IMG/VR virus record: IMGVR_UViG_2657245131_000006
Reading direction: 5' to 3' (one strand)
DNA: 10,989 nucleotides
Origin: a virus
Lineage: Duplodnaviria > Heunggongvirae > Uroviricota > Caudoviricetes
Made by a program: the position numbers
In this document: piece by piece, positions 3,001 through 6,000 of the stretch
Numbering within the stretch: the first letter of the stretch is position 1
Layout: the number at the start of each line of letters is the position of its first letter

Positions 3001-6000
3001 GCTGAACCATCCGACTGACATATCCTCTGGCACAAGCATAACTACCGTCTGTCGCTGTTGTATGCACTGCTCAGCGGCTTTTTCCACCCACGGCCTGATA
3101 TTGCTGTACGGTGGGTTATTCCAGATTGCACCGTGGCTTACCCACTCAGAATTGAGCGCGTCGTCGGCCTCAGTTAGCCAGTGAGCACACAGAGCATTTT
3201 TGTCGCTCGCTGCCGAATCCAGCCAGAATCCAAACTCAATATCCAGTGCATCAAAAAGCCAAAGCGGCGTTTGCCAGCAGTCCTTGTTGTGTGCTGGCGT
3301 ATTTGATTTGATAGTCATGCAGCCCGATCTCCCCATCGCGCTTTCATTTTTTCATTTGCAAATCGCCAGAATCTTCCTTTGTGATATGAGCTTTCGCCAT
3401 TACAGCAACGACTAATTGACGAACTATCAAATCCTTCTCTGACAGCATCCATAGCTGCTTCATAATAAACCTCCTCCCCAGTTTTCATGTCAGTAGAAAT
3501 AACAGCTTTACTGGCAGGATGGTCACCACTAAATTTACCTAGCGATATAGGTATTCTTCCATTTTGTTTATATCCGTGTTTTGAGTTTTCAGAATGTGAT
3601 ACCCATTCAAGGTTATCAGCCCTATTGTCATCTCTTCGCCCATTTTTGTGATTAACTACCAAGCCATCACAGAACCCTGTACAGAATGCTTTCGCAACTA
3701 TCCTGTGGGCGCTGTATTTCTTACCGTATACCTTTATTTGAAGATATCCTGTCGACTTGCACTTGAATGGTTTTACACTAGTGCCATTAATTATTTTCTT
3801 ATATGGCCTCTGTCTGGTTGATGTTACTGTAACTTCCCTCGTAATAGACCTGAAATTTCCTTTATTGCTAACCTGATAAAATGGAATCCCTTCGATATCT
3901 ACCCAAACCTCAATCATAATTCCTCCATTCGCTAAGATGAATTGAGTTCATGGCACAATATGCTTCTATGTAGTCCATTATTTCGGATATTTTTTTTACA
4001 GATAGAGTCGCCGTACTCTCTCTGATGTTTATTAGCTCACCTTCTAACCCTGATATAATCTCAGGGTGCTGGTTGGTTGCAATCTGCCAACCAGAAACGA
4101 ATAACCCCTTCCAAAACTCAATATTTCTTGCTTTTCCGTGATATGTAGCCTTCTTACTTATTTCAGATAGCATCGCGTGAAGGCGTGCATTTTGCCGAAT
4201 GCTGCGGTTGCGTTCCTGAATGGTTACTACGATTGGTTTGGTTGGGTCTGGAAGAATTTGCTGGATAGCTTGAATGGCGTTCTGCTGATGGATGGGGCTT
4301 CTTAGTTCAAATGTTAGTTTCCTCATCACCCTTAATCCTCTCGAAGTTCTTCTCGAAGTTTTTGGTGTCGAACACTGACCACCGACCATTATGAATGGCG
4401 TATGCACATGTCTTGTTTTCGTCCTGATAAACCACCCTTACCTTGCGATAAAACCGTGGCTTAATCTCTCTGAATATTTGCTCGCTCATGCTCACTCCTT
4501 CACTTTAAATCCAGACTCCGGATAATTCTGTTGCGCTGAAACTCATTATTGAGTCTGAACAACCGTCGAAGAACACGGTCACGCGGATAGCGCCGTGCGG
4601 CAGGTGAGTGCTCATACAACTCATCAAGCGGCAAACTGGACGATGAACGATACCGATACCAACGCACCAACTCTTCACGAAAATTAGCCCTGACAAGCTC
4701 AGCTATCGTACTCATTTCTTAAAACCTCCTCAAACGCATTCTGACGCATTTTTCATTCTCGCTGCCTATCGACATGCCTTGCACGTGCTTACCTCACCAC
4801 AGAGCGATTGTGATGCCTTAAAAGCGATTTATTGAAGTGATATTTGCTTCATCGTCACCTCAACTAACAAAACGCCACGCCATTTTTGCTACAGCAACAG
4901 GCGCAACACCGATAATCACCCACAGGAGAATGCTACCGAAAAGCACACCCACCAGGTCTTTACCTTCGCCTACCAACCGGACAAAACTGCTGACAACAAC
5001 AATGAATGTCGCCACCATCCACATAGCACCGAGAATCCTCAATGCAGAGAAAATTAACTCAGCCACGATTTACTCTCCCCCAAATAAAAAGGCCTGCGAT
5101 TACCAGCAGGCCTGTTATTAGCTCAGTGATGTAGATGGTCATTGCTTCATCTCCCTTTCCATTTCATCAATGTCAACGTCATCAGGAAGATGGGAGCAAT
5201 ACGCCGCTATACCATGATGATTTATCTCATACCCTTTGAACGTTACCATCTGGTGCGTAATCTCAACTTCGTTCAGGAATCCGTCATCGCATAACTGCCT
5301 GGCTATTTTCGATTTGGTCTGGATTATTGGTAGTGCCTGTTCTTTCAAAGCGCATGATATTTGTGCATCCCATGCCTTTTCGAGAATAGCTAATTGTTTT
5401 TTATTCATACGTCAGCCCCTTGTGCATATCGTCTGCCACGCGCAGCAGGTGCATTTGATGCTGTGCAAATCTGTCTGGCTTCATCCTGGTCACATGCAAC
5501 AAAGTGTCCGTTACAGAACCGCTGGTAAACCGTACCAAGTGAGCCAAAACGGTTTTTCGTCACGATGATTTCAGCAAATGGCGCGGCGCTACTGTTCTCG
5601 TCATATACCGCTTCCCGATAGAGCATGATGATTGAGTCTGCGTCCTGTTCAATGCTTCCTGAATCACGCAAATCTGCGTTTGTCGGGCGTTTATTTGGTC
5701 GCTTCTCAACATCGCGCGAAAGCTGACTTAGGGAGATAACTGGCGTTTTCAGGTCTTTCGCCATCGCCTTCAGGCTTCCGGAGATGTGAGCAATTGCGAG
5801 GTCGTTGCGGTCTGCTTTCGGCTTCTCAATCAGGCCAAGATAATCCGCCATGATGAGTGAGAGGTTTGGATTTTCCTGTTTGTGCCGTTCTGCGATTGAG
5901 CGTATTTCTTCGACCGATAACCGCGAGGCATCGACTACCCATACATCCAAATCTGCAAGCTGACTCATGCCGTTAGCAACACGTGCCCAGCCTTCGTCAT

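Follow-up and report, generated by a model that had tools for sequence, protein, structure and literature searches.

An HNH endonuclease gene that ends in captured ninB codons: a probable free-standing homing cassette in lambdoid phages

Introduction

T-even and related phages carry free-standing homing endonuclease genes of the seg and mob types, such as mobE, which splits nrdA in Aeromonas phage Aeh1. The locus described here resembles them in that the nuclease gene lies in or next to a conserved gene, has a patchy distribution, moves with co-transferred flanks and leaves the interrupted host gene functional. The HNH homing endonuclease I-HmuI of Bacillus phage SPO1 (PDB 1u3e) is encoded inside a group I intron. 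HNH domains have also been found together with the recombination mediators of the Orf family, in the NinB/Orf-HNH fusions of the DUF968 type (PMC2034487, PMC4118853). Here we analyze a stretch of 10,989 nt from a virus of the class Caudoviricetes (IMG/VR record IMGVR_UViG_2657245131_000006; hereafter the window), in which an HNH endonuclease gene stands between ninB and the gene for a Dam-type methyltransferase. We propose that this HNH gene is probably a ninB-specific, free-standing homing-endonuclease cassette, which encodes a predicted nuclease and borrows the tail of the gene that it invaded.

In full-text literature searches we found the NinB-HNH fusions and a figure marking HNH genes in the ninR region, and no description of such a cassette or of tail capture. 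The same searches returned no description of a nuclease clade dedicated to Orf/NinB, of read-out through an invaded gene's last codons, or of a second HNH family that captures the first 9 codons of the methyltransferase gene.

Results

The HNH open reading frame (ORF) and the piece of ninB at its end are located as follows.

3315..3917, minus strand: HNH endonuclease ORF, 200 aa, I-HmuI-like (Pfam, phmmer, AlphaFold and Foldseek)
3315..3344, minus strand: captured lambda-type ninB tail, KARWGDRAA plus TGA, corresponding to lambda NinB residues 138-146

Lambda NinB ends in ...LALEWKARWGDRAA and the HNH protein of the window in ...EKMKARWGDRAA, the residues KARWGDRAA being identical in both proteins. 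When the DNA from 3344 to 3318 was compared with the lambda-type ninB genes of Sf101, A28 and SW07096, 26-27 of the 27 bases matched, and the identity ran on into the methyltransferase gene. Because of this match and its continuity with the flanking identity, we regard the tail as a true remnant of ninB; a chance resemblance was ruled out on the same grounds, the flank being 97-100% identical. The tail is read in the +1 frame relative to the 5′ part of ninB, and it carries a GGGGAG ribosome-binding site and an ATGA overlap for the downstream gene. Its 3′ half varies with that gene: GATCGGGCTGCA was found before the methyltransferase gene, GACAGGGCGGCA before ninE and GATAAAGCAGCA before a ninC-like gene. 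Since the 3′ half of the tail tracks the downstream gene and phage 21 matches, tail and downstream gene both come from the recipient. The tail was thus taken from the recipient's lambda-type ninB and not from the ninB allele now upstream.

The limits of the moved block were defined by alignment with the HNH-less locus of Escherichia coli A28.

3346..4200, minus strand: 855-bp cassette, made up of divergent ninB codons 43-138 with the stop codon and of HNH codons 1-191 (alignment with A28)
4201..4326, minus strand: ninB codons 1-42, resident lambda-type backbone and left homology arm (97% identical to A28 ninB)

From the ninB start to position 4201 the window was 97% identical to A28, the identity stopping after ...CGCAACCGCAGC. 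The segment from 4200 to 3346 showed no similarity to A28, so that 855 bp in the window stand against 287 bp of lambda-type ninB in A28, and from 3345 on the two sequences were again 97-100% identical. The breakpoints relative to this empty site are therefore 4200/4201 and 3345/3346, and the methyltransferase gene is 97-100% identical to that of HNH-less loci. Phage 21 provides an HNH-less site for the ninB-ninE context, where it matches cassette carriers from 4 nt before the tail with 99.5% identity. Insertion of the HNH gene alone was ruled out, because the block that differs from the empty site measures 855 bp and includes ninB codons 43-138.

Copies of the cassette that were 98-100% identical were found, in IMG/VR contigs and E. 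coli genomes, behind at least four 5′ alleles of ninB and ahead of at least five downstream genes (methyltransferase, ninE, ninD-like, ninC-like and a second HNH gene). The 126 nt of ninB that precede the cassette in the other carriers were 81-85% identical to those of the window or unrelated to them (L056), and the 200 bp upstream and 200 bp downstream of other copies were unrelated. Right joints fell within or close to the first ~17 nt of the tail, and left joints at the conserved ...QERNRS codons. The occurrence of near-identical cassettes in very different flanks implies that the cassette has spread faster than the backbone. Of 5426 complete E. coli genomes, 77 carried the cassette, whereas 1857 had related flanks; among matching phage records the count was 62 of 338. 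Several copies have decayed: the HNH gene is truncated to 55 or 123 aa in L035 and L013 and frameshifted near residue 148 in P0124, P0125 and P0127, and ninB is frameshifted by a 1-nt indel in L054 and L055. All in all, these comparisons indicate that the cassette has spread horizontally among many lambda-like phages as a sharply bounded block.

An earlier reading of the window, made from the sequence alone and before any database search (the sequence-only reading), had noticed the resemblance between the C-terminal residues of the HNH protein and the lambda-type NinB tail, which the 9 identical residues and the DNA match confirm. It had supposed that the HNH gene inserted into the 3′ end of ninB and captured the final codons of the invaded gene. 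The capture is borne out, but the unit that moved is the 855-bp cassette; the codons do belong to an invaded ninB, that of the lambda-type recipient, but not to the ninB that now lies upstream. Relatives with the same flanks but no HNH gene at the junction, which that reading had suggested looking for, exist both for the ninB-methyltransferase arrangement (A28) and for the ninB-ninE arrangement (phage 21), and the genome counts show the HNH gene to be sporadic.

The junctions between the HNH gene and its neighbours involve the following features.

3910..4326, minus strand: ninB, 138 aa (match to Pfam NinB, with its RAGNYA core, at E 2.5e-40 over model positions 2-129 of 131; phrog_72)
2791..3318, minus strand: Dam-type N6-adenine methyltransferase gene, a backbone gene outside the cassette (Pfam Dam, E 8.8e-65)
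3910..3917, minus strand: ATGATTGA, 8-nt overlap of the HNH start codon and the ninB stop codon (direct reading)
3922..3926, minus strand: GGAGG, the Shine-Dalgarno sequence that serves the HNH gene, 4 nt 5′ of its ATG and read as W-R in the ninB frame

The upstream junction reads AGC GAA TGG AGG AAT TAT GAT TGA on the minus strand, with the HNH ATG at 3917..3915 and the ninB stop at 3912..3910, within HNH codons 2-3. At the downstream junction (minus strand, GCT GCA TGA / ATG ACT), an ATGA is common to the HNH stop (3317..3315) and the methyltransferase ATG (3318..3316), giving a 4-nt overlap. A longer methyltransferase start at 3336, proposed by the ORF lister, was rejected as an in-frame upstream ATG, since the homologues begin MTIKSNTP. 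We found no context for a self-splicing intron, as the HNH ORF overlaps both neighbours and has no non-coding flank (no Rfam scan was made); overlaps of 8 nt with ninB and 4 nt with the methyltransferase gene leave no room for one. A NinB-HNH fusion produced by frameshifting or read-through was also considered from the sequence and set aside, since the HNH gene lies in frame +1 and the sequence shows no evident slippery motif.

The ninB gene of the window is a chimera, in which lambda-type codons 1-42 are joined to codons 43-138 of a variant subfamily that shows ~36-38% identity to lambda-type NinBs. Its 138-aa product ends in ...HLSEWRNYD, and this seemingly abrupt end is the Shine-Dalgarno sequence, spacer and ATG of the HNH gene (TGGAGG..TATGA) read in the ninB frame. 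A TGGAG..TATGA-type arrangement was present in all HNH-linked ninB alleles checked, whose products end in W-R-x-Y-D, G-G-R-Y-E, N-W-G-G-R-Y or similar residues. The C-terminal helix region of the window NinB is ~8-11 residues shorter than in HNH-less NinBs; the C-terminal region of lambda Orf contributes to DNA binding (PMC4118853). Truncation of ninB inside its core was ruled out by the Pfam coverage (2-129 of 131), only the C-terminal helix region being short. All 65 phage-collection records in which the C-terminal two-thirds of ninB are at least 86% identical carry the adjoining HNH gene, so that no HNH-less copy of a close variant allele was found among them, nor was an HNH-less variant ninB found among the database relatives placed on contigs, down to ~56% identity. 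The more distant P0021 is the one exception: it alone among the variant-type NinBs keeps an unbroken lambda-like tail (..KKWSARWGA*), and no HNH gene adjoins it. With regard to the sequence-only reading, the 200-aa HNH gene that it placed between ninB and the methyltransferase gene is present (ORF 3917..3315 on the minus strand, with NUMOD4 and HNH_3 matches) and coupled on both sides as it described, by ATGATTGA upstream and ATGA downstream. Its abrupt ending of ninB holds for ...HLSEWRNYD and the short C-terminal helix region, but the Pfam core is complete and the ending itself consists of the HNH start signals.

The HNH protein matched Pfam NUMOD4 at residues 3-63 (E 1.4e-13) and HNH_3 at residues 69-112 (E 2.4e-11), with a further I-HmuI_NUMOD-like match at residues 145-181 that lies below the Pfam cut-off.

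3582..3713, minus strand: HNH_3 catalytic core, residues 69-112 (Pfam; H90, D97, N102, N111)

These four residues align with the I-HmuI motif and were invariant in a family alignment of 45 sequences. In the same alignment W184 was invariant, and conservation dropped away after W184-F186. A phmmer search against the PDB gave I-HmuI (1u3e) as the sole significant match (E 3.7e-14, residues 55-186), and the same structure was the sole significant Foldseek match (E 1.6e-12, 29% identity over 192 aligned columns) of an AlphaFold model with a mean pLDDT of 90.4. Model confidence was low for the tail, residues 191-200 having a mean pLDDT of 56. By predicted fold, the HNH protein belongs with the I-HmuI-type HNH homing endonucleases and is a predicted nuclease. 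The string RFWRFA was considered as an older NinB remnant and rejected, because it aligns with the last I-HmuI strand and W184 is invariant in the family. Comparison of the window HNH gene with five relatives gave dN values of 0.15-0.41 with saturated synonymous sites, for which reason only dN and a qualitative conclusion on selection are given. With invariant catalytic residues and a dN that stays well under the saturated dS even at deep divergence, the nuclease gene has been maintained; it is under purifying selection and has been kept for a long time in a presumably functional form.

Twelve non-redundant genomic contexts of HNH homologues were checked for their upstream gene. An Orf/NinB-family gene lay directly upstream in 11 of them, in one case of the YbcN type, and the upstream protein of the twelfth (L078) was placed by no library. 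The overlaps between the HNH and NinB ORFs were mostly 1-11 nt and reached 32 nt in L072. Conversely, every variant-type NinB of ~138 aa that could be placed on a contig was followed by an HNH gene, mostly with an 8-nt overlap. Such pairs occurred in Salmonella SEN22, Yersinia, Pantoea, Mixta and metagenomic contigs, and on another contig whose NinB is labelled Acinetobacter sp. (metagenome-assembled genome) by NCBI. Most HNH genes linked to variant NinBs are of the same NUMOD4-HNH family, and three belong to a different, HNH_3/AP2-like family. The divergence from the window followed the same rank order for HNH and NinB proteins in five comparisons. More distant HNH homologues stand behind a lambda-type NinB (L079), another NinB type (L077), Pseudomonas-type NinBs (L082, L083) and a YbcN-type Orf homologue (L080; NCBIfam PRK09741). 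The Pseudomonas-like metagenomic contigs L082 and L083 share at 1579-2591 an identical NinB and NUMOD4-HNH pair with an ATGA overlap, ending in ..EQWEAAA*, and the genes that follow differ (RecA_dep_nuc and YbcO, respectively). As the same pair precedes different genes, cassette behaviour occurs outside Enterobacterales as well. A scan of the genome collection with a NinB alignment returned mostly distant alphaproteobacterial NinBs, useful as native C-termini and for the most part without an I-HmuI-type HNH gene.

The tails of the HNH homologues that follow the conserved ...HKGxxWRF measure 2 to ~25 residues, and many are recognisable C-terminal pieces of NinB, for example ..AFGTQRGVEWSPTSLGRAA, ..GTEHGVKWADEAKAA, ..AHGVQLTETIKGGFHDPRARAA and ..SRLEIEWATRWGKS. 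Tails of 10 aa or more numbered 51, and 17 of these matched the last ~25-40 residues of NinB proteins with E <= 0.01; shuffled controls gave 0-1 matches per shuffle in 20 shuffles. The ninB end is duplicated in L079, where the upstream NinB finishes with ..AFGAEHDVKWGEAT and the HNH protein with ..WRF-GTEHGVKWADEAKAA. These results show a ninB-HNH linkage that is old and family-wide and not a recent one-off event.

HNH genes of the second, HNH_3/AP2-like family (phrog_99) were observed at neighbouring sites. One such gene separates an intact lambda-type ninB from the Dam methyltransferase gene in E. coli SW07096 (L006:1641-2168) and ET650 (L007:1602-2129), and also in L046, which holds both HNH genes in tandem. 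It begins with the first 9 codons of the methyltransferase gene (MTIKSNTPA), and behind it the methyltransferase frame starts anew with a divergent N-terminus (MIKHKSETPKEV..). It thus shares with the window HNH gene the neighbourhood and a mirror-image form of capture, but it belongs to another HNH family and takes the 5′ end of the downstream gene instead of the 3′ end of the upstream one. Genes of the phrog_99 type were also found at the ninB 3′-end site of other phages (L011:2910-3458, L012:2910-3461 and L059:2913-3371). The L012 protein ends in ..AKNQAIEWASRFGDKQRAAA, gap-free and colinear with lambda NinB ..EARLALEWKARWGDRAA, and looks like the product of a clean split of ninB in which no sequence was lost.

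The window as a whole is the early region of a lambdoid phage, with a cI-like repressor gene on the plus strand and genes for Cro, cII, O, a DnaB-type helicase, NinB, the Dam methyltransferase, NinE and antirepressors on the minus strand; the 1.7 kb that we queried matched Escherichia phage TL-2011a and dozens of Stx2a-converting phages with 100% identity. The replicative helicase (5405-7798, minus strand; 797 aa) contains an intein-like insert that divides its Pfam DnaB_C match into two stretches and itself has LAGLIDADG_3 and Hom_end matches at residues 393-454. The insert lies in the Walker-A loop (..ARPGMGK / AMALSEG ... YIVTHN / TELALK..), and its first residue, Ala, suggests an unusual, class-3-like intein, which would be a second selfish nuclease element within the same 11 kb. 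The helicase gene of the A28 prophage, annotated at 1377 nt as a frameshifted pseudogene, is of normal length. Two tandem genes for ORF6N-domain antirepressor-like proteins occupy 1038-1712 and 1978-2343 on the minus strand; the second (121 aa) is without the P22_AR_C domain of the first and looks like a truncated duplicate. A KilAC/Rha antirepressor gene is found at 289-969.

Discussion

We consider it probable that the HNH gene is a homing cassette specific for ninB, and read its anatomy and spread in the following way. The gene sits inside the 3′ end of ninB, and the Shine-Dalgarno sequence and start codon that it brings along put an end to the ninB frame upstream. Being without a stop codon of its own, it is read in frame through the 9 remaining ninB codons to the ninB TGA. 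The tail would preserve the GGGGAG ribosome-binding site and the ATGA overlap, and with them translation of whatever gene follows ninB, and it may serve at the same time as a short right homology arm present in every lambda-type ninB, whatever the downstream gene. In E. coli and Salmonella phages the nuclease gene is accompanied by the strongly divergent ninB allele, and the edges of this cassette are the nearest stretches that still match lambda-type ninB, with codon 42 as its left limit and the tail as its right one. When phages co-infect a cell or a phage meets a prophage, the predicted enzyme would nick or cut an HNH-less ninB, repair would then copy the cassette from the donor, and the accompanying divergent ninB allele would be expected to escape cutting, which would make it immune.

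Several points weigh against this proposal. No cleavage target site was definable from the sequences compared, and the original insertion event is reconstructed and was not observed, as no HNH-less copy of the close variant ninB allele was found. The strict, co-diverging linkage across NinB subfamilies would be equally expected of a cooperating nuclease and mediator, and NinB-HNH fusion proteins have been described in Gram-positive phages (PMC2034487, PMC4118853). Ordinary exchange of lambdoid modules could spread the block without any action of the nuclease. Finally, the protein-level tail search is blind to out-of-frame remnants, so that selection for in-frame read-out is not demonstrable with it.

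In the main rival explanation, the HNH nuclease works together with NinB, and the two genes form a conserved, non-selfish operon module. NinB (Orf) would load recombinases on single-stranded DNA coated with SSB, the nuclease would make breaks or process intermediates, and the NinB-derived tail may help the nuclease to dock on NinB or DNA. Such a partnership would account for the 11 of 12 contexts with the HNH gene directly after an Orf/NinB-family gene and mostly overlapping it, for the common rank order of divergence in the five comparisons and for the strong purifying selection on the HNH gene, and the DUF968 fusions have been interpreted as cooperation (PMC2034487, PMC4118853). We nevertheless hold it to be unlikely, because most phages with ninB have no HNH gene, decayed copies exist, two unrelated HNH families occupy the same site and the architecture is that of a homing endonuclease and not of the DUF968 type. 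The tails, moreover, speak against a conserved docking role: their length varies from 2 to ~25 residues, their sequences differ, they follow the local downstream module, and model confidence is low for the tail of the window protein. More doubtful than this partnership is a further explanation, in which general or Red-mediated recombination, acting at short conserved sequences, would have spread the block as an ordinary lambdoid mosaic module, with the HNH gene as a passive and possibly inactive passenger and the in-frame tail as a historical accident. The nin region is known for shuffling (PMC4118853), and at both breakpoints the DNA of variant-type and lambda-type ninB becomes similar again, as homology-guided exchange predicts. 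Arguing against this explanation are the invariant catalytic residues with a dN far below saturated dS, the near-identical cassettes in very different flanks, and the in-frame NinB remnants, which recur across many lineages and also within a second HNH family.

As an alternative, the sequence-only reading had offered a restriction-modification-like or methylation-dependent unit made up of the HNH protein and the Dam-type methyltransferase. The two genes do adjoin with an ATGA overlap in the window. This overlap, however, is inherited from the ninB-methyltransferase junction; the same cassette precedes ninE, ninD-like or ninC-like genes or another HNH gene elsewhere, no methyltransferase gene adjoins the HNH gene in the Salmonella (SEN22), Yersinia, Pantoea and Pseudomonas relatives, and in most related phages and prophages the methyltransferase gene directly follows an HNH-less ninB. 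With a linkage that is not conserved and a methyltransferase that is common without the HNH gene, we discarded this pairing on the distribution of cassette and methyltransferase, and consider it extremely improbable. A bolder reading, to which we give little credence, would have the whole I-HmuI-like clade dedicated to Orf/NinB, with the NinB-derived piece functioning as a tether of the nuclease to NinB dimers or to single-stranded DNA coated with NinB/SSB. If this were true, the tail would be part of the C-terminal DNA-binding helix of NinB, a split two-gene machine would both make the break and load the recombinase, and the selfish element would carry its own repair-pathway adaptor, in parallel to the NinB-HNH fusions of Gram-positive phages.

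The ninB-specific homing cassette that we favour is a neat case of nuclease genes shaping phage mosaics; it is not fundamentally new and leaves the categories of mobile elements unchanged. It would offer a testable case of a homing-type nuclease that drives mosaic joints in the lambdoid ninR region, including that of clinically relevant Stx2a-converting phages, and it would account for the chimerism of ninB, with razor-sharp breakpoints, in these phages. It would also illustrate how a selfish gene can enter a tightly coupled operon and leave it unbroken, by bringing its own ribosome-binding site and start and borrowing the last codons, the stop and the coupling signal. Should the nuclease prove active, the site that it targets in lambda-type ninB would add a new natural specificity, and the arms of 126 nt and 27 nt would represent the minimal homology used for transfer.

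Set beside the free-standing seg and mob genes, the window HNH gene differs in that it lacks its own stop codon and finishes with the last codons of the invaded gene, that the linked target allele belongs to a deeply divergent subfamily, and that its hosts are temperate lambdoid phages. With I-HmuI it shares the domain order, that is, an N-terminal beta-strand DNA-binding region, the HNH core and a C-terminal, NUMOD-like helix-turn-helix. Whereas I-HmuI is encoded within a group I intron, the window HNH gene is free-standing and overlaps both neighbours. I-HmuI stops 4 residues past the strand aligned with ...RFWRF186, and the window protein has 14 extra residues there, the last 9 from ninB; the metal-ligand Asp that precedes the catalytic His in I-HmuI is Asn in the window protein. 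The DUF968 proteins (PMC2034487, PMC4118853) resemble the window locus in associating an HNH domain with an Orf-family recombination mediator, although neither NinB nor the HNH protein of the window had a Pfam match to DUF968. The fusions consist of one polypeptide with a zinc-finger HNH domain C-terminal of the Orf domain, whereas the window encodes nuclease and mediator as two ORFs in different frames.

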